Shown here in pieces: positions 960-9,733 of a DNA stretch of 16,225 bases. Below the pieces are notes generated by a model. That model saw only the letters and a list, made by a program, of their open reading frames with translations. It was not told where the DNA came from and made no database searches. Source of the DNA: Candidatus Micrarchaeota archaeon (GTDB lineage Archaea; Micrarchaeota; Micrarchaeia; Anstonellales; Anstonellaceae); the NCBI GenBank assembly GCA_013331805.1, contig DUFS01000015.1, positions 1-16,225 of the forward strand, in the 5' to 3' direction. How positions within the stretch are numbered: the first letter of the stretch is position 1; every line of letters starts with the position of its first letter. A program made the position numbers and the translations under genes.

Positions 960-1433
960 GTGGTGAATCTGACGAAATACTCATCTGCATTTGCAGTTAT
1001 GGTGCTAGGAATTTTTTTGCTTGCTGGTTGCACAGAGAATCAAAAACAACCTATAAATGAAACTACTGGCAACATGACAGGAATAAACAACTCGGGCTCG
1101 GCAAATGGAGTTCCTATGCGGCCCTTCACTGATTCCGCAGTAATCAAAGCAAAAGTTTTGGAAGTGCAGCCACAGTCTGCACAACTTGAGATTTTACAGA
1201 TATTGTCATATACTCCTGATTTGCGGGACGGCACGGTAAAGCTCGCAAATGGCGATATTCGAAATTTCACATTCCAATGGGGCACACTACCTACTTTGGT
1301 CGATATGCCGCCCCTCGGGCCGAGCAGTACTGATATGCGCCTAAATGGAGTCTCAACGAGTTCCATTCTAAATGCGAACATATCGATTAGTGGAAATTTA
1401 TGGACAGTGTATGCATATGAACCGTTGGACTAG
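960..1433 (+). CDS. Putative lipoprotein, unknown function
   Basis: Hydrophobic stretch ending in lipobox LLAGC, Asn/Gly/Thr linker, then a small beta-rich domain. Stop overlaps the start of the protease gene. Start uncertain (924, 960, 963 or 999). Confidence 0.7.
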   Translation: MVNLTKYSSAFAVMVLGIFLLAGCTENQKQPINETTGNMTGINNSGSANGVPMRPFTDSAVIKAKVLEVQPQSAQLEILQILSYTPDLRDGTVKLANGDIRNFTFQWGTLPTLVDMPPLGPSSTDMRLNGVSTSSILNANISISGNLWTVYAYEPLD

Positions 1434-4400
1434 GCCGATTATATCTATTTTCGCATTGGTTGCTTTATCCAGCTTGATTTCCGGTGTGCCTGCTTGGCCA
1501 GGTCTTCACACATTCCAACAGCCAGATGGCACAACTTTCAGCGGTCACCAGCGAGGTGACGAGTCTGGCGCTTGGTTTGAAACAGAAAACGGCTATATAG
1601 TCAAGCAGAGTACATCTGATGGCTGGTATGATTATGTTCAAAAGTCTGCAAGCGGTTCAAATTCTCCTGCGTCAACTCCTCAAAGCATTGATTTGAGAAT
1701 TGGCTATGCAGACCCAGAATCGATTGGTGCCATGCGCCAAACAGATTTATCTAGCACAGTGTCAGCATCAAAGAGTGCCAATAAAGATGTGCTGGAACTC
1801 ACCGAACTTCCAAACCAATTCCGAAGTGCGCCTCCTTTCTTTGCGCCTCCACCCACTGGCGCGCACAACGTTATTGTAATCCTTGTGCAATTCAACGGTA
1901 CTGTGCACAACTCGAGCCACACCACTGCTTATTTCCAGAATTTGTTGTTCAACGCTTCAAATCCTTACAGCATGAACAGCTACTTCCGCGAGGTCTCGTA
2001 CGGGCAGTTAAACGTCACTGGTACCGTTGTTGGATGGTATAACAGCAGTCATTCACTTTCATTCTACGGAGCCGATAACGGAAGTGACATTGACGCGCTA
2101 AATGGCAATATATTCGAGCTTACCCGTGAAGCTGTGCTGCTTGCCGATCCCGATGTGAACTTTGCAGATTATGATAGTGACGGAGATGGGATAGTGGACC
2201 ATGTCATAATCATTCATGTGGGTTACGGACAAGAATTTTCTGGCGTTAGCACAGACATATGGTCGCACAGCTGGAGCGTGCAGCCTGCCCAAGCCGTTGA
2301 TGGCAAGACAGTGTTCGGTTATACCATGAATCCGGAATACGGCGCAGTTGGTGTTTTTTCACACGAGTTTGGTCATGATTTGGGGCTGCCTGATTTATAT
2401 GATACTGTAGGAACTGGAAAGTCAGTCGACAAGTGGGATTTGATGGGTTCTGGCTCATGGGGCGGCCCGGGCAACGATGGATCAGTTCCAACTCACCTCA
2501 GCGCATGGTCAAAGGCGCGTCTTGGGTGGATTAATGTAACAAACATATTCAACACACCTCGTTCCTACAATATCCAGAACATTGAAAGCAATTCAAATGC
2601 ATATGCGGCAAACAATTCCGTTTTAGTTGGTCAAAACGAATATTTCTTGTTGGAAAACAGGAAACAGGTTGGTTTTGACGCTTATATTCCAAATCAAGGG
2701 ATAGTTATCTGGCACATAGATGACGGCGTTATCAATGCGTACTATGCTGATAACACCATCAACGGCCATTCGATACAAGGAGTCATTCCAGAGTACGTCT
2801 CAACCGTAACCGACGCACCTTACTTGTCACCCTCAAAACAATATTTCAATGCCACAACTACTCCAAATTCTGCGACAAATAACGGTACCGCAACGAGCGT
2901 TTCAATCTACGTTCAAAGCCCGATAGGCACCAGCATGACGGTGCACTTTTTTGGCGGAAATTCCTCAGATTTGGACCCTCCGGTTCTAAGTCCTGTCCAC
3001 ATGGGCTCAAACAACAATAACGCAAGCCTGGCAACTGTTGGAAATGTCATCAACCTCTCTTTCACATCCGACAAGGCGCTCAACCAAACTCCAATAGTTA
3101 CAATCTCCAATCACAGTGTGGCGGTCTCATCAGCAGGTGGCAATTCATATTACGCGCTTTACACCATGACTTCCTCAGATGTTGAACGGGTGATTCCATT
3201 CACAATCGATTTCAGCAGCTTCAATTATGTTGCTGGCACACGGGTGATTGGCACAACAGATGGAAGCTCGGTGATTTTTGACAAGACGCCACCCTCCGTT
3301 ATACTAACACTCCCTCTGAATGCTTCATTCTCAAACAACACAAGCGTTACAACGAATTTCACGGCTTCAGACAACAACAGCGCCATGCTTTCATGCACGC
3401 TCTTTGTGGATGGCTCTAGCAACATTTCATGGAGTGCATATGTAGCTGGCACTGCACAAGCAAACACTCAGGCTTTCTCTGCAGGAACCCACAATGTATA
3501 TGTAAACTGCACTGATCAAACAGGCAACTCCAATACAAGTTCAACCAAAACATTCACAATAGACTTAACGCTGCCATCAATCCTAATCACAAATCCCACC
3601 AACAATTCTTTTGTCACTTCAACCATAACCATAAACCTTACTGTATCCGACACAAACCTCAATTACACAAATATTTCGCTGTATAATTCCGCTGGCTATC
3701 TGGTCGATTCAACAGCAAACACAACTAATGGCACCTATTCACTCATGCTCACTTCTCCAGTGGATGGGATATACAGCATATTTGCAACGGCGGTTGACAA
3801 AGCTCAAAACACAGGCTCATACACTGTCTCAAATCTAACGCGAGACGCAACCTCTCCCTCGCTCACCGTCATCTCTCCCGCTTCCAGTCAGTTGCTCAAC
3901 ACAAGGATTATTACGGTCAATCTGTCGGTGACAGACGCCAACCTTAATTATACCAGCATCTCGGTCTACAACTCGACCAATGCTCTGATAAATTCCACCA
4001 TCAGCTATGCCTCTGGAACATTTGCGGTTGCTCTTGGCTTGCCATCAGATGGAGTGTACAGAATAAATGCAACTTCCTATGACAGAGCAGGCAATTACAA
4101 TTATTCCTCGGTGCAAAATATCACTGCCGACACCACAGCGCCGACCGTGGCCCTCAACGCGCCAGCAGCCTATCTCAACACATCCACTGCGAACGTCACA
4201 TTCAACTGGACCGCATCAGACGTGCCGCTTCCATTCGGCACCCTCACCTGCAACCTCACAATTGACGGCACAGATAACCAGACTGACCTGCAGATGACAA
4301 ATGGAATCTGGTACAACATAACCGCAACCTCCAACTTCACAGATGGCACCCACAACTGGTCAGTAACCTGCTGGGATGGCCCGAACAACACCAACACCTC

Positions 4401-6837
4401 TACAACAAGTTTCTTCACAGTGGACACCGTGCCTCCAGCAGTAACTCCCGTCTTGCCAGCGTCGGCAGCCGACCTATCAACAGCCAACGTCACATTCAAC
4501 TTTACCGCAACCGACGCGCTCACCAACATGTCCTGCAATCTCACGATTGACGGCACATTCAACCGCGCAGTCAGTGCAAACAATGGCACTCCAACCACAA
4601 CAACAGCAACCTCTGCGTTTGCGCAAGGTACCCACAACTGGTCCGTCTCCTGTCGGGATAATGCAGGCAATGTCAACTCCTCAATGGCAGCCAGGGCATT
4701 CATAGTTGATACCACATCTCCATCCATCACCCTCAATTCACCTGCCAACAACACCAACACTACCAGCAACAGCAGCACATTCAACTTTACTGCTGCAGAC
4801 AACCTTGCCAGCACTCTCAATTGCTCTCTTTACATCAACTCCGCGTTCAACCAGTCAAATGCCTCTACAGCCAACAATACAGCTGTCACACTCACAGTCT
4901 CCAACATGGCAAACGGCGTGTACACCTGGTACATATTCTGCAAGGACAATGCGCTCAACAACAACACTTCGGAGATAAGGTCGCGTCTGGTGGACAATAC
5001 AGCCCCTTCCCTAGCCATCAACTCCCCAGCCAACAACACCACCACCAGCACCAACATAACATTCAACTGGACCGCAAGCGATGTTGTGCCCACCAATATC
5101 ACCTGCAACCTGACAATTGACGGCTCAACAAACCGCTCCAACATTTCAGTGACAAACGGAACAGCCTATACCACCACCGCTACAGCAAACTTCACCCAAG
5201 GCAGCCACAACTGGTCTGTTAGCTGCTGGGATGGGGCAAACAACACCAACACTTCTGCGAAGCGCACCTTCACAGTTGACACAGTGGCGCCATCAGTCAC
5301 CACAACCTCGCCAGTTGCCTATCGGATATACAACACCACCAACATCAGCCTGAACTTCACTGTGCCAGACGCCACTACAGCTGTATCATCCTGTTGGTAT
5401 GCCATAAACAGCGGAAGCAACCAGACAGTCGCCAGCTGCGCAAACACAACTCTGAACTCCAGCCTGATGGCCAACGGTACCAAGACATTGGTGCTTTATG
5501 CAAACGATACTGCAAACAACACCAATTCTGCAATGTCAATATTCTTTGTCGACACCAGCGGCACCTACGCTTTGCTCAACAACTCCACCTCCAATGTAAC
5601 TGCCAACGGCACCAACCTGGTAATCACGCCCTTCACGCCGCCATCCAACATCAGCATGTCCTCAAACGCAACCAACGTCACGCTCGACCTTTCCGGCCTT
5701 CTCAATAGTACCACGCACAGTGCAACCCTGCCAAACCAGACGAATGTTTCTGCAAATACAAGCCTTGGCACCATAACCTTGCAGATACCCGCGAATACCA
5801 CAGTTATCGGCACATCTGGCTGGAACGGTTCAATACAGCTGCCAAACGTAAAGGCAAGCGCGTCCACCTCGCCAATAGCAGACTCCAGCTACAGCGTCAG
5901 CTCGGTTGATGCAGTGGTGGACATTGGATTTGGTTCAGTGCAGCTCAACTTCAGCAAGGGGGTACGGCTGTTCATACCAGGCATGGCAGGAAAGACCGCA
6001 GGCTACTCCAGAGGAGGCAAGTTCACCAAGATATCCGACACCTGTGCAGGGGACAACCAGGCAGTGGGAGACGCGCTTTCCGTAGGCGCAGACTGCAGGA
6101 TTGACTCGGGAAGCGACCTTGTGATATGGGTCAAACATTTCACCGAGTTCATAGCCTACACGCAGACTGCCACAAGCAGCGGCGGCACGCCAAGCGGCGG
6201 AGGCGGCGGTGGAGGTGGTGGCGGTGGCGGAAGCAGTTCAGCCTCCCTCAAAGAAGTCTCAGTTTACATGGTAGATGTTGGGCTTGGCAAATTCTGCCCT
6301 GTTAAAATAACTCGCGAAATGAAAAGCTCAACAAACCATTCGGTGCTCACCACCACTCTGGAAAACACAGGCAACGAAAGCTGCAAATTGGAGGACTTTA
6401 CATTTTCGGACACAATCCCGACTATCTTTGCCCCTATAGATAATCTGACTTTTGTTCCGTTATATGACTCGCTCTCCGGCCAATCTGTAAATTTCAGCTT
6501 CCCATCTTTCTCAAGCGGGGAGTCAAGGACATTTACATACTCATCTGAAACGCGGATCCCGCCCTCCCGCGCAAAGAACTTCACAACCTACAGCATGTCC
6601 GCAAAGAAGCAGGCAGCTGCCGCCCCGCCGCAGGAGAACGCGACAGCGCAGCCTGGGAAAGAGCCACTGGTTCCAACAGTGCCGGCAACAAAGCCCCTGG
6701 CGCAGCAGCAGCCAGCGCCTGCCCAGGTGCCAGCGCAGCAGGACTTTTCAGGAATACTGCCGGCGCTTTTCAGAGCTTCAATAATCATAGCCGTGCTGGT
6801 GCTGGCATTCTTCCTGTTCGCCAGGAAAAAGAAGTAA
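1411..6837 (+). CDS. Membrane-anchored M6-family (immune inhibitor A-like) zinc metalloprotease with tandem Ig-like repeats
   Basis: Signal peptide; prodomain PAWP..QPDG..RGDE; motifs YFREVSYG, DSDGDGIVD..IIIHVGYGQE, IWSH, HEFGHDLGLPDLY (2362-2400), WDLMGSGSW, HLSAWSKARLGW, EYFLLENR. Then ~95-aa D-T-x-x-P repeats, poly-Gly linker, and C-terminal TM helix ending RKKK. Start 1411 or 1417. Confidence 0.9.
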   Translation: MHMNRWTRPIISIFALVALSSLISGVPAWPGLHTFQQPDGTTFSGHQRGDESGAWFETENGYIVKQSTSDGWYDYVQKSASGSNSPASTPQSIDLRIGYADPESIGAMRQTDLSSTVSASKSANKDVLELTELPNQFRSAPPFFAPPPTGAHNVIVILVQFNGTVHNSSHTTAYFQNLLFNASNPYSMNSYFREVSYGQLNVTGTVVGWYNSSHSLSFYGADNGSDIDALNGNIFELTREAVLLADPDVNFADYDSDGDGIVDHVIIIHVGYGQEFSGVSTDIWSHSWSVQPAQAVDGKTVFGYTMNPEYGAVGVFSHEFGHDLGLPDLYDTVGTGKSVDKWDLMGSGSWGGPGNDGSVPTHLSAWSKARLGWINVTNIFNTPRSYNIQNIESNSNAYAANNSVLVGQNEYFLLENRKQVGFDAYIPNQGIVIWHIDDGVINAYYADNTINGHSIQGVIPEYVSTVTDAPYLSPSKQYFNATTTPNSATNNGTATSVSIYVQSPIGTSMTVHFFGGNSSDLDPPVLSPVHMGSNNNNASLATVGNVINLSFTSDKALNQTPIVTISNHSVAVSSAGGNSYYALYTMTSSDVERVIPFTIDFSSFNYVAGTRVIGTTDGSSVIFDKTPPSVILTLPLNASFSNNTSVTTNFTASDNNSAMLSCTLFVDGSSNISWSAYVAGTAQANTQAFSAGTHNVYVNCTDQTGNSNTSSTKTFTIDLTLPSILITNPTNNSFVTSTITINLTVSDTNLNYTNISLYNSAGYLVDSTANTTNGTYSLMLTSPVDGIYSIFATAVDKAQNTGSYTVSNLTRDATSPSLTVISPASSQLLNTRIITVNLSVTDANLNYTSISVYNSTNALINSTISYASGTFAVALGLPSDGVYRINATSYDRAGNYNYSSVQNITADTTAPTVALNAPAAYLNTSTANVTFNWTASDVPLPFGTLTCNLTIDGTDNQTDLQMTNGIWYNITATSNFTDGTHNWSVTCWDGPNNTNTSTTSFFTVDTVPPAVTPVLPASAADLSTANVTFNFTATDALTNMSCNLTIDGTFNRAVSANNGTPTTTTATSAFAQGTHNWSVSCRDNAGNVNSSMAARAFIVDTTSPSITLNSPANNTNTTSNSSTFNFTAADNLASTLNCSLYINSAFNQSNASTANNTAVTLTVSNMANGVYTWYIFCKDNALNNNTSEIRSRLVDNTAPSLAINSPANNTTTSTNITFNWTASDVVPTNITCNLTIDGSTNRSNISVTNGTAYTTTATANFTQGSHNWSVSCWDGANNTNTSAKRTFTVDTVAPSVTTTSPVAYRIYNTTNISLNFTVPDATTAVSSCWYAINSGSNQTVASCANTTLNSSLMANGTKTLVLYANDTANNTNSAMSIFFVDTSGTYALLNNSTSNVTANGTNLVITPFTPPSNISMSSNATNVTLDLSGLLNSTTHSATLPNQTNVSANTSLGTITLQIPANTTVIGTSGWNGSIQLPNVKASASTSPIADSSYSVSSVDAVVDIGFGSVQLNFSKGVRLFIPGMAGKTAGYSRGGKFTKISDTCAGDNQAVGDALSVGADCRIDSGSDLVIWVKHFTEFIAYTQTATSSGGTPSGGGGGGGGGGGGSSSASLKEVSVYMVDVGLGKFCPVKITREMKSSTNHSVLTTTLENTGNESCKLEDFTFSDTIPTIFAPIDNLTFVPLYDSLSGQSVNFSFPSFSSGESRTFTYSSETRIPPSRAKNFTTYSMSAKKQAAAAPPQENATAQPGKEPLVPTVPATKPLAQQQPAPAQVPAQQDFSGILPALFRASIIIAVLVLAFFLFARKKK
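3286..5556 (+). repeat. About eight tandem ~95-aa Ig-like domain repeats within the protease gene
   Basis: Recurrent DTTAP..TFN[WF]TA.D..C.L.IDG..G.HNWSV.C.D...N.NTS. 18-bp DNA identity ACATTCAACTGGACCGCA at 4198 and 5059. Boundaries approximate. Confidence 0.8.
6181..6231 (+). repeat. GGN triplet run encoding a poly-Gly linker
   Basis: ggcggaggcggcggtggaggtggtggcggtggcgga, in frame. Confidence 0.85.
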
Positions 6838-6924: not shown

Positions 6925-7103
6925 AGCCCCCGATGGGAATTGAACCCACTACCTGCTGCTTTCTTGGCTTCCCAAAGGAAGCTGTGCAACTTCGTTGCAC
7001 AATTCTGCAACGGTATCCGTTGCAGAAGCAGGGAAACCCACTTTCTGTTCCGCGAAGGGGTTTTCCGTACAAGGCAGCCGCTCTACCGATGAGCTACAGG
7101 GGC
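6925..7103 (-). tRNA. tRNA-Thr(UGU) with a 107-nt intron at position 37/38 (intron 6961-7067)
   Basis: Minus strand: GCCCCTG TA GCTC ATCGGTA GAGC G GCTGC CT TGT A [intron] A GCAGC AGGTA GTGGG TTCAATT CCCAT CGGGGGC T. All stems pair (G-U allowed), U discriminator, CCA not encoded. Intron 3' end CAAG-AA pairs with CTTG of the anticodon loop (BHB central helix). Confidence 0.93.
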
Positions 7104-7127
7104 AGCATTCTTGTCTGTGCATACTAA

Positions 7128-7133
7128 TTTAAA
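7128..7133. promoter_or_regulatory. TATA box (TTTAAA), possibly shared by divergent tRNA-Thr and rpl40e
   Basis: Palindromic TTTAAA 25 bp upstream of tRNA G1; the only clear TATA-like element between the two genes. Confidence 0.55.
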
Positions 7134-7171
7134 CTTTGATCAGACCAAATCCGAACCACGAGGTAATGACT

Positions 7172-7220
7172 ATCAGCATCGCCTGAGGGCGATGTCTGAA
7201 AATTCCTGGAGGCAATTTTC
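7172..7220 (+). promoter_or_regulatory. Double-hairpin leader element, copy 1 (rpl40e 5' UTR)
   Basis: ATCAGCATCGCC-TGAG-GGCGATGTCTGAAAATT-CCTGGAGGC-AATTTTC-ATG, near-identical to 9377-9427. Confidence 0.75.
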
Positions 7221-7373
7221 ATGGGCAAATTCGCAGAGGCTGACGCATACATATCGAACATATTCATCTGCCGCAAGTGCAAGGCGAGGAACAAGCGGAA
7301 TGCCAAGAAGTGCCGGAAGTGCGGCTCGATCTGGATGCGCCCCAAGAGAAAGGACATACGCGTCAAGAAGTAG
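7221..7373 (+). CDS. rpl40e: 50S ribosomal protein L40e (eL40), missing from the ORF track
   Basis: Manual translation MGKFAEADAYISNIFICRKCKARNKRNAKKCRKCGSIWMRPKRKDIRVKK (50 aa) with the ICxxC.ARN..CRKCG..RPK signature; SD GGAGG at 7208-7212. Confidence 0.95.
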   Translation: MGKFAEADAYISNIFICRKCKARNKRNAKKCRKCGSIWMRPKRKDIRVKK

Positions 7374-9315: not shown

Positions 9316-9376
9316 ATGGCTTTGAGCTGGATTGGGTGTCCGGTCAAGAGGATCGGAACGGCATATTGGTGAATTG

Positions 9377-9427
9377 ATCAGCATCGCCCTGCGAGGCGAT
9401 GTCTGAAAATTTCAGGGTGAAATTTTC
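9377..9427 (+). promoter_or_regulatory. Double-hairpin leader element, copy 2 (rps10 5' region)
   Basis: ATCAGCATCGCC-CTGCGA-GGCGATGTCTGAAAATT-TCAGGGTGA-AATTTTC-ATG. Perfect 10-bp stem GAAAATTTCA/TGAAATTTTC overlaps the SD GGTGA. Confidence 0.75.
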
Positions 9428-9733
9428 ATGGGAAAAGCGAGGATCAAGCTGATTGGCAAGACCCCGGAGGACCTCGAGGAGGTCTGCAAGCAGATCGTGG
9501 AGATTGCCAAAATGACCGGAGTGGAAATCAAGGGCCCGGTCCCGCTTCCCACCCGCCGATTGAACGTATGCACCCGCCGCTCCCCGTGCGGGGACGGCTC
9601 GGACACCTACGAGCACTGGGAGATGCGCATCCACAAGAGAATAATAGACGTCGCAGGCGACGAAAGGACGCTGCGGCAGATCATGCGCGTCCGCGTGCCC
9701 GAAAATGTCCAGGTAAAAATCAGCCTCGAGTAA
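9428..9733 (+). CDS. rps10: 30S ribosomal protein S10 (uS10), archaeal type
   Basis: KARIKLIG, GPVPLPT, RRSPCGDG..TYEHWEMRIHKRIID; located downstream of tuf. Confidence 0.98.
   Translation: MGKARIKLIGKTPEDLEEVCKQIVEIAKMTGVEIKGPVPLPTRRLNVCTRRSPCGDGSDTYEHWEMRIHKRIIDVAGDERTLRQIMRVRVPENVQVKISLE

Follow-up and report, generated by a model that had tools for sequence, protein, structure and literature searches.

A probable 49-51-bp double-hairpin insertion element on gene start codons in one genus of Micrarchaeota

The window analysed here, a 16,225-nt stretch of contig DUFS01000015.1 from a Candidatus Micrarchaeota archaeon (assembly GCA_013331805.1), carries the ribosomal protein (r-protein) genes rpl40e and rps10, each preceded by a copy of the same leader of about 50 nt, which folds into two adjacent hairpins and ends at the base before the start codon. 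The genome holding the window (G000; 1.19 Mb in 83 contigs, 52.9% G+C, rated 91.5% complete; the window is part of its contig C37) was compared with relatives, which bear the other G-numbers used below. The composite pattern ATCAGCATCGCC-N4-6-GGCGATGTCTGAAAATT-N9-AATTTTCATGGG, with which a sequence-only reading had described the pair, has exactly two matches in the window, both of them forward-strand (7172-7225 and 9377-9432), and none of 200 dinucleotide-preserving shuffles contains any; a search with the 17-mer core at up to two mismatches returned only the same two places, with 0.01 expected. As that reading had also stated, the copies differ only in loop 1 (TGAG versus CTGCGA) and in a 9-nt segment holding the Shine-Dalgarno (SD) sequence (CCTGGAGGC versus TCAGGGTGA), and the last base of each directly precedes the ATG of a real gene, encoding L40e and S10, respectively (Table 1). 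We conclude, with a probability of roughly 0.8, that both leaders are copies of a non-coding, genus-specific double-hairpin insertion element of 49-51 bp without terminal inverted repeats.

This conclusion is carried by orthologous start regions, which were compared within the genus for five genes (junctions are marked here by slashes). For S10, the empty sites of G036 and G035 read ...GGTGAAaca/ATGGGCAAGGCA and the filled site of G033 reads ...GGTGAAaca/ATCAGC...AATTTTC/ATGGGCAAGGCA, an insert of 51 nt; the position is filled in four of 19 congeners (G000, G033, G040 and G023) and in none of ten loci from other genera. The L40e start is empty in G037 (...ccgaaccacgaGGTcatatt/ATGGGCAAATTCGCA) and filled in the window (...ccgaaccacgaGGTaatgact/element/ATGGGCAAATTCGCA), with two of 21 loci filled (G000 and G020), and that of ScpB is empty in G020 (...GTGATcctt/ATGGACGAAACC) and filled in G000 (...GTGATtctt/element/ATGGACGAAACC), the only filled locus among 22. 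The same holds for L19e, which directly follows the stop codon of the upstream gene (G022, ...TAAGTGATtctc/ATGGCA; G034, ...TAAGTGATattt/element/ATGGCA; filled in two of the 21 loci seen, two further loci having escaped the search pattern), and for PurL (G036, ...GTGGGAAG/ATGGCG; G023, ...GTGGGAGA/element/ATGGTC; seven of 22 filled). In all five genes the insert measures 49-51 nt, separates the ATG precisely from the gene's own SD and spacer, and leaves the protein N-terminus unchanged. AT flanks both sides of the element in all five comparisons, as a 2-bp duplication or an ambiguous boundary, and the ATG is therefore regenerated; the boundary of the rpl40e copy, for instance, is uncertain by this dinucleotide (AT/CAGC...TTTTC/AT/G). 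What appears as a conserved GGTGA/GTGAT box 4-10 nt upstream of ATCAGC is the SD, with its spacer, that each gene originally had. A TTG start of rps10 is seen in three congeners (G020, G025 and G039; loci L232, L237 and L255); all three sites are empty, and the filled sites seen all have ATG.

The 17-mer at up to two mismatches matched 29 loci in 17 of the 42 genomes of the family, and 13 of these loci show, by inspection, the full hairpin-hairpin-SD-ATG arrangement, before different genes. A covariance model built from these 13 loci (R1) detects 16 copies in G000 and matches in 18 of 22 congeners at E<=0.01; at E<=1e-4 in an order-wide sample, matches fall in 16 of 22 congeners, two of 19 other genomes of the family and three of 109 genomes of other families. 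The element is specific to one genus of Micrarchaeota, with almost none outside it. A looser pattern, ATCAGC-N10-30-ATGTCTGAAAAT, returned at least 120 stretches of public contigs, and 80 loci were fetched: two are true copies, both from Candidatus Micrarchaeota archaeon, and the other 78 reach at most 24 bits, the pattern being too loose. Among viral contigs, 11 pattern matches were obtained, none convincing by a second covariance model, R2 (best 20.2 bits). A hairpin-descriptor scan of G000 was likewise too loose and was dropped (706 matches versus 329 in a reversed control). AATTTTC before ATG is not a general feature of G000, where a crude start-site consensus, based on poor gene calling, finds it at three genes.

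The genes that carry the element are diverse. After a further 40 R1 matches were fetched for alignment, 54 distinct downstream open reading frames (ORFs) of at least 40 amino acids were available; 41 were scanned with NCBIfam, the 13 omitted being orthologues of proteins already included, and 34 of the 41 received names. Ten are r-proteins (S10, L31e, L40e, S14, S27ae, L19e, S12, L14e, L3 and S7). The other carriers include ScpB, SMC, RadA, DnaG, Gins23, RpoA'', CDC48, PAC2, prefoldin beta, Rrp42, PurS/L, ArgH, GGGP synthase, SppA and the 2-oxoacid:ferredoxin oxidoreductase beta subunit. The element-bearing RpoA'' gene of G040 (L058, contig C10) also matches intein N-terminal splicing models.

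Two adjacent hairpins are the RNAalifold consensus of the 13 seed sequences, and the window elements folded alone (52 and 54 nt) adopt the same arrangement at -19.6 and -22.0 kcal/mol. Pair counts were based on an alignment of 75 covariance-model matches, 72 of them distinct (A3). Standard pairs occupy 94.0% of its cells; displacing the 3' partners by 1-3 columns lowers this to 39.9-55.8%. Double-sided changes are seen at 17 of 18 pairs, and the observed covariation score was reached by none of 500 shuffles. G-U pairs are present as well, as in GAAGATT/AATTTTT. The earlier suggestion of a functional structure is thus borne out, both hairpins covarying as the helices GCAUCGCC/GGCGAUGU and UGAAAAUU../..AAUUUUCA, but the proposed extension of hairpin 1 by UCAG/CUGA, and with it a switch through the shared GA, is not. 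The extension can form in most copies, yet its four pairs show no double-sided change and have 6-16 unpaired cells of 72 each. The competing pair, between the G of CUGA and the C at position -1, is compensated from G-C to A-U in four copies (CUAA...UAUG) and is unpaired in none. Because the G of CUGA compensates with the C at -1, hairpin 2 begins at the UG of CUGA and closes with the CA whose A is the first base of AUG, and all of these bases belong to the covariation-supported helix.

The base of hairpin 1 is formed by the conserved AUCAGCAU/AUGUCUGA, the remainder of its stem varies freely among copies, and the blocks AUCAGCAU and AUGUCUGAAAAU are more conserved than base pairing alone would require. 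At the PurL site, the stems CAGCTGC/GCAGCTG, CAGCCGC/GCGGCTG and CAGTGGGC/GCCCACTG compensate one another. Three further readings of the structure were considered, and the last two were rejected. An RNA thermometer or riboswitch expression platform that sequesters the SD would call for an SD-paired off state; by consensus the SD lies in the loop of hairpin 2, with only two SD nucleotides paired in the minimum free energy (MFE) structure of copy 1. An upstream ORF running from ATC, or from an upstream GTG or TTG, to the TGA of CUGA does not keep its frame by inspection of 13 copies, with ATC..TGA lengths of 26, 26, 28, 29, 29, 30 (seven times), 31 and 34. A kink-turn (L7Ae) or C/D-box-like pairing of GUGA with CUGA was rejected by inspection because the upstream GUGA is the host gene's old SD, at a varying distance; moreover, CUGA is occupied in hairpin 2, nothing 5' of the GUGA box is complementary to AAAAUU, and the tandem sheared G.A pairs of such a motif, flanked by a canonical stem and a 3-nt bulge, are not seen.

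The element carries its own translation signals. ATG is present in 66 of 73 distinct copies, and 52 of these 66 have an SD-like word 6-10 nt upstream of it (mode 8), which in 28 is GGAGG, complementary to the 3' end of the 16S rRNA (GAUCACCUCC). At filled sites the original SD is left 55-60 nt upstream of the ATG. The inserted element would be transcribed within the 5' untranslated region and the gene then translated from the element's SD, and insertions into essential genes such as rps10 and rpl40e would survive because translation relies on that SD. Under this model, the AU-rich hairpin 2 would present the SD in its loop and would have to open for the AUG to be read, and hairpin 1 might be kept for mobility, as single-stranded DNA or RNA, or for an inert or stable leader. 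Position within the transcript appears to vary. In about seven loci a TATA-like hexamer begins 27-31 nt ahead of the element's first A, which would put hairpin 1 at the mRNA 5' end; the distance is 36-44 nt in about nine loci and 54-65 nt in the filled S10 loci, and about 25 of 59 loci lack a hexamer of this kind within 70 nt, several of them lying directly after an upstream stop codon. A TATA box inside the element, giving leaderless transcripts, was discarded on inspection, its spacing to the ATG (about 16-22 nt) being too short.

The distribution of filled sites suggests a history of repeated change. In a FastTree phylogeny of EF-1alpha DNA, the four genomes with a filled S10 site are scattered among empty ones. 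At purL, G036 has a clean empty junction, and an insert of about 50 nt, strongly diverged, is present in its near relatives G035 and G031 (L369 versus L368 and L370); the PurL inserts of G033, G035 and G031 are all diverged and degenerate. The sequences of G035, G031 and G036 suggest that old copies decay and that precise loss may be possible. Since the filled S10 genomes scatter in the tree and G036 lacks the PurL insert, roughly three or more gain or loss events per gene are estimated, and clean loss seems to occur. Within G000, 2.2 kb separates the L40e copy from the S10 copy, both have the stem CATCGCC/GGCGATG, and the S10 copies of other species have other stems (CGCCGTC/GGCGGCG and CATGCCC/GGGCATG). 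Because the two stems are identical and so close together and those of other species' S10 copies differ, one window copy was probably copied from the other in a local event.

Related copies lie away from start codons. R2 detects 27 copies in G000, which were classed by inspection as ten on the starts of named genes, one SD-bearing copy before a 10-aa ORF, four B-type copies and 12 SD-less intergenic copies. B-type copies, the main yield of an nhmmer search with the 13-sequence alignment, have the same hairpin-1 base followed by GTCTGATGCATTTTC...GAAAATGCACATC, in the layout TTCAGCAT-stem-loop-stem-ATGTCTGATGCATTTTC-loop-GAAAATGCACATC, with neither SD nor ATG. A simple motif search finds eight of them in G000 (Table 1), and G033 holds at least four identical-scoring copies. 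At three loci the closing stem GTAGTGGA/TCCACTGC is followed by a terminator-like hairpin, in resemblance of small RNA genes; a search of the eight loci against Rfam 15 at E<=5 returned only tRNAs and chance matches to long non-coding RNAs. The 12 SD-less intergenic copies end in ...TTTTTC, mostly followed by AT plus any base; C-type copies are SD-less intergenic double hairpins of the form ..TAGTGGAATT/AATTCCACT-GCTGAAAAA-stem-TTTTTC, again with AT and any base behind them. G016, from another genus, has 31 weak R1 matches, and the copy seen upstream of its S10 gene, off the ATG, is of the C-type. The rps4 start of G000 (C11:17738-17793, reverse strand), which follows immediately on the upstream gene, shows the hairpin-2 half alone (GAAAACTT-atggagg-AAATTTTC-ATG) and may be a truncated copy.

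Table 1. Element copies, translation signals and genes in the window (window positions), with SD-less copies elsewhere in G000 (contig:position).
Feature	Position	Strand	Basis
Element copy 1 (49 nt), abutting the rpl40e ATG	7172..7220	+	Pattern match; R1 match 7162-7226, 73.1 bits; same position empty in 19/21 congener L40e loci
Hairpin 1, copy 1: GCATCGCC / loop TGAG / GGCGATGT, closing G.U	7176..7195	+	RNAalifold consensus; MFE; double-sided changes in all 9 pairs among 72 distinct copies
Hairpin 2, copy 1: TGAAAATT(CC) ... AATTTTCA; SD in loop; last pair takes the A of ATG	7197..7221	+	Consensus, covariation, MFE
Element-borne SD GGAGG, 8 nt before the rpl40e ATG	7208..7212	+	Sequence; 16S 3' end complementary
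Stranded ancestral rpl40e SD (GAGGT), now about 57 nt from the ATG	7160..7164	+	Aligns with the SD of empty sites, e.g. G037
TATA-like box AATTTAAAC, predicted rpl40e promoter	7127..7135	+	Predicted from sequence; kept in all 21 congener loci shown
rpl40e, 50 aa	7221..7373	+	NF003161, E 3.5e-14
Element copy 2 (51 nt), abutting the rps10 ATG	9377..9427	+	Pattern match; R1 82.7 bits; position empty in 15/19 congener S10 loci and 10/10 loci of other genera
Hairpin 1, copy 2: GCATCGCC / loop CTGCGA / GGCGATGT; stem as in copy 1	9381..9402	+	Sequence, MFE
Hairpin 2, copy 2: TGAAAATTTCA / GGG / TGAAATTTTCA; SD-like AGGGTGA in and beside the loop	9404..9428	+	MFE
Stranded ancestral rps10 SD (GGTGA)	9368..9372	+	Empty sites ...GGTGAAttg/ATGGG (G037, G041) and ...GGTGAAaca/ATGGGC (G036, G035)
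rps10, 101 aa	9428..9733	+	TIGR01046, E 1.8e-43; PF00338
Eight B-type loci (L180-L187)	C8:2819, C11:18779, C46:8726, C50:1485, C59:12131, C60:28558, C68:1906, C81:3878		Intergenic
C-type copies (examples among others)	C7:666-735, C21:47533-47602, C57:1077-1146, C55:5028-5094, C34:11005-11071		

A search of the whole window against Rfam 15 at E<=1 had a tRNA at 6925-7103 on the reverse strand as its sole match, in agreement with the statement that the leader belongs to no known family. This tRNA gene, divergent from rpl40e, has a 109-nt intron in the anticodon-loop region; it scores 48.5 bits with the Rfam tRNA model and was missed by ARAGORN, and its intron forms three short hairpins unlike the element. 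The forward strand of the window also encodes, at 1372-6837, a protein of 1821 aa that combines an M6 (immune inhibitor A) peptidase domain with several bacterial Ig-like domains, a very large product for a genome of this small size. Elsewhere in G000, a 16S rRNA match on contig C10 (1759-4064, reverse strand) spans 2306 nt against a model of 1478 positions, with a second partial match at 197-1384 on the same strand, and the 16S gene seems to be interrupted by one or more large inserts.

Several points weigh against interpreting the leaders as inserted elements. The element has no terminal inverted repeats, its 5' end ATCAGCAT and the reverse complement of its 3' end ATGAAAATT having only AT in common, and at most a 2-bp (AT) duplication, which falls short of classical transposition; exact placement on the ATG of about 50 different genes also fits no known DNA transposition mechanism. 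No transposase, integrase or autonomous partner was linked to it. Y1 transposases (HUH; PF01797) occur in only six of 23 congeners and are unmatched in the element-rich G028, G034 and G021 (13, 13 and 9 element matches, respectively), reverse transcriptase occurs in three of 23 with no link to the element, and the ends of resident IS200/IS605 elements differ, the sequences after tnpB stop codons (e.g. GGTGGGAGCATGTCAC) and beside Y1 genes (e.g. GGGCTTTAGCCCGTGG) being unlike hairpins 1 and 2. The EF-1alpha phylogeny comes from one gene and mixes genera, its support values were unread and its deep nodes are unreliable, so that the number of independent gains or losses can be put no more closely than at roughly three or more. 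All genomes are incomplete metagenome-assembled genomes, and absences are for that reason weak evidence. Finally, A3 was fitted to the covariance model, which favours the model's own structure, and use of the element's SD is predicted from its sequence and position.

G000 itself has three Y1 transposase matches and seven TnpB genes, and no autonomous element with the same ends was found among these loci (other transposase families were not searched). The 5' flanks of the element vary (..ATTG, ..AACA, ..GACT, ..TCTT, ..ATTT), with no conserved tetra- or pentanucleotide target. Three of the seven tnpB genes (on C65, C47 and C40) have GG(T/A)GGGAG(C/T)ATGTCAC in common just after the stop codon, and on C40 a three-hairpin copy of the element and the start of the next gene lie about 40 nt past the tnpB-adjacent sequence. 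As a tentative extension of the insertion reading, the element might be a mobile element that homes to start codons: a mechanism whose substrate might be nucleic acid in single-stranded or RNA-paired form would recognise AT where an SD leads an ATG and would place a portable ribosome-binding site there, by which streamlined DPANN genomes would rewire the translation of essential genes, and the SD-less B-type copies might be transcribed masters or decoy RNAs.

Two explanations had been offered for the shared leader, a cis-regulatory RNA that co-regulates r-protein genes by feedback and a tiny repeat supplying translation starts. The second is borne out by what was found, namely insertions on start codons that bring their own SD and are present or absent among close relatives. 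The first, in which the double hairpin would mimic an rRNA site and a bound r-protein would repress dispersed r-protein genes, could draw on the ten r-proteins among the 41 downstream proteins and on the covariation of both hairpins, but 31 of the 41 are not r-proteins, the same r-protein genes are mostly empty in congeners (S10 in 15 of 19, L40e in 19 of 21 and L19e in 19 of 21, leaving S10 filled in only four and L40e in two), the element is essentially confined to one genus, and a hairpin-1 stem of freely variable sequence is ill-suited to a specific rRNA mimic; we regard it as very improbable. Still harder to credit is an operator at the DNA level, with a dimeric transcription factor binding the palindromes, which would lie on the downstream side of the promoter. 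The palindrome GAAAATT-N9-AATTTTC does lie between TATA box and ATG, yet stem sequences differ with pairing kept, including the G-U (G-T) pairs noted above, which fits a folded single strand and not a sequence-specific duplex site, and some copies directly follow an upstream stop codon with no promoter of their own in view.

A compatible reading accepts the insertion origin and adds a function, the host now using the structured leader as a shared post-transcriptional module (a protein-binding site, a thermosensor or an mRNA stabiliser), with co-regulation of the carrier genes as the expected result. It gains from the conservation of AUCAGCAU and AUGUCUGAAAAU beyond pairing needs, from carriers that are mostly housekeeping and information-processing genes, and from the roughly seven loci whose upstream TATA-like hexamer would place hairpin 1 at the mRNA 5' end, a stabiliser-like position; the compensatory stem changes at what is apparently one orthologous PurL site further suggest that structure matters after insertion, and genes behind the Neisseria REP2 repeat are described as co-regulated in the passages on it in PMC3184786. 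However, a given gene may have the element in one genome and lack it in a close relative, which argues that no gene needs it, old copies such as the degenerate PurL inserts decay, the copies have no common position in the transcript, and no partner protein or RNA was identified, so we hold such a function to be conceivable but rather unlikely. The leader could also have spread without transposition, as a cassette copied between start regions by ectopic gene conversion or by replication template switching at the microhomologies ...AT and ATGG.... Hairpins promote slippage and template switching, and the absence of terminal inverted repeats and of a linked transposase, junctions with only AT in common, the identical hairpin-1 stems of the neighbouring window copies and the many target genes that begin with ATGG(C/G)A all accord with this route. 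A homology of 2-6 nt is nonetheless very short for repeated precise events in about 50 genes, the SD-less relatives in intergenic DNA, off start codons, suggest a general insertion mechanism, and the clean PurL junction of G036 also looks like excision; we consider this route improbable.

If the leaders are insertions, the five genes with empty and filled sites define insertion junctions to the single nucleotide for an archaeal element one third the size of REP2, and essential genes (rps10, rpl40e) tolerate the replacement of their ribosome-binding site. The copies would then amount to a natural experiment on what an archaeal translation start needs, with an SD displayed in a hairpin loop, a spacer of 8 nt and an AUG at the base of the stem. 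They raise a testable question, how a 50-bp element without inverted ends comes to be placed exactly on start codons in a 1.2-Mb genome, and a caution for motif searches, in which covarying leaders common to r-protein genes can be mobile DNA.

Among known systems, autoregulatory r-protein leaders (L1, L10, S15 and the L7Ae kink-turn) are each retained at a single operon over a wide range of taxa, and they mimic a site in rRNA. The element resembles them as a structured 5' leader beside the SD and AUG of r-protein genes, but it is restricted to a genus, lies at unrelated genes, varies in stem sequence and has no Rfam match. REP/REPIN/BIME sequences (mobilised by RAYT, a Y1 HUH enzyme) and IS200/IS605-derived elements need folded single-stranded DNA in order to move; REPs are usually located behind genes rather than on start codons and have no SD. 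Like these palindromes, the element is a short hairpin-forming repeat without terminal inverted repeats and with little or no target duplication; unlike them, it is abundant in several genomes with no Y1 match, lacks a conserved 5' tetranucleotide and differs from the resident insertion sequence ends. It falls outside the REP-RAYT and IS200/IS605-derived definitions because it has neither an enzyme link nor a conserved 5' target. Miniature inverted-repeat transposable elements (MITEs) have, by definition, terminal inverted repeats and a fixed target duplication (TA for Correia); Correia and ERIC are small and non-autonomous, polymorphic among relatives, co-transcribed with their neighbours and able to alter expression. 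The element shares with them polymorphism by presence or absence at orthologous sites in five genes, and differs in lacking inverted ends, in its at most ambiguous AT and in a position fixed to the start codon. Both Correia (CREE/NEMIS) and ERIC are bacterial MITEs named in PMC3184786.

The double-hairpin or repetitive hairpin-forming elements of mitochondria (Allomyces, sponges), as described in the passages of PMC2800124 that deal with them, are about 50 nt long, form two hairpins, are scattered in numbers that change from one close species to the next, persist in transcripts, and lack both target duplications and any known enzyme to mobilise them. The element matches them in size, in its two hairpins and in the want of a known enzyme; they are organellar, and the same passages place them in intergenic DNA and variable regions of rRNA and protein genes, without translation signals. 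The closest published analogue appears to be the Neisseria REP2 repeat, which, with similar Borrelia inverted-repeat (IR) sequences, is intergenic, lacks terminal inverted repeats and has two internal inverted repeats for which stem-loops 1 and 2 are predicted (Delihas 2011, PMC3184786, passages on these repeats). There, REP2 is also described as 120-150 bp long and said to contain a promoter, lies immediately upstream of many unrelated genes, and fuses a ribosome-binding site and ATG to downstream ORFs, its mode of proliferation being left unexplained. A literature search on Micrarchaeota leaders and repeats and on MITEs carrying ribosome-binding sites turned up, at abstract level, no description of the element, and in the literature searched, as far as its passages go, only the Neisseria and Borrelia repeats are small repeats with translation signals fused to ORFs, their spread likewise unexplained. 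Compared by description and not by sequence, the element is like REP2 in having no terminal inverted repeats, two internal inverted repeats, and an SD and ATG fused to ORFs; it is unlike REP2 in being archaeal (Micrarchaeota) and not bacterial and in its length of 49-51 bp. As to a promoter, the TATA-like boxes seen near the element lie outside it at variable distance or are absent. The passages on REP2 are silent on the point of insertion and on presence or absence among relatives, and in the archaeal element both insertion between the old SD and the ATG and polymorphism among relatives were directly seen.

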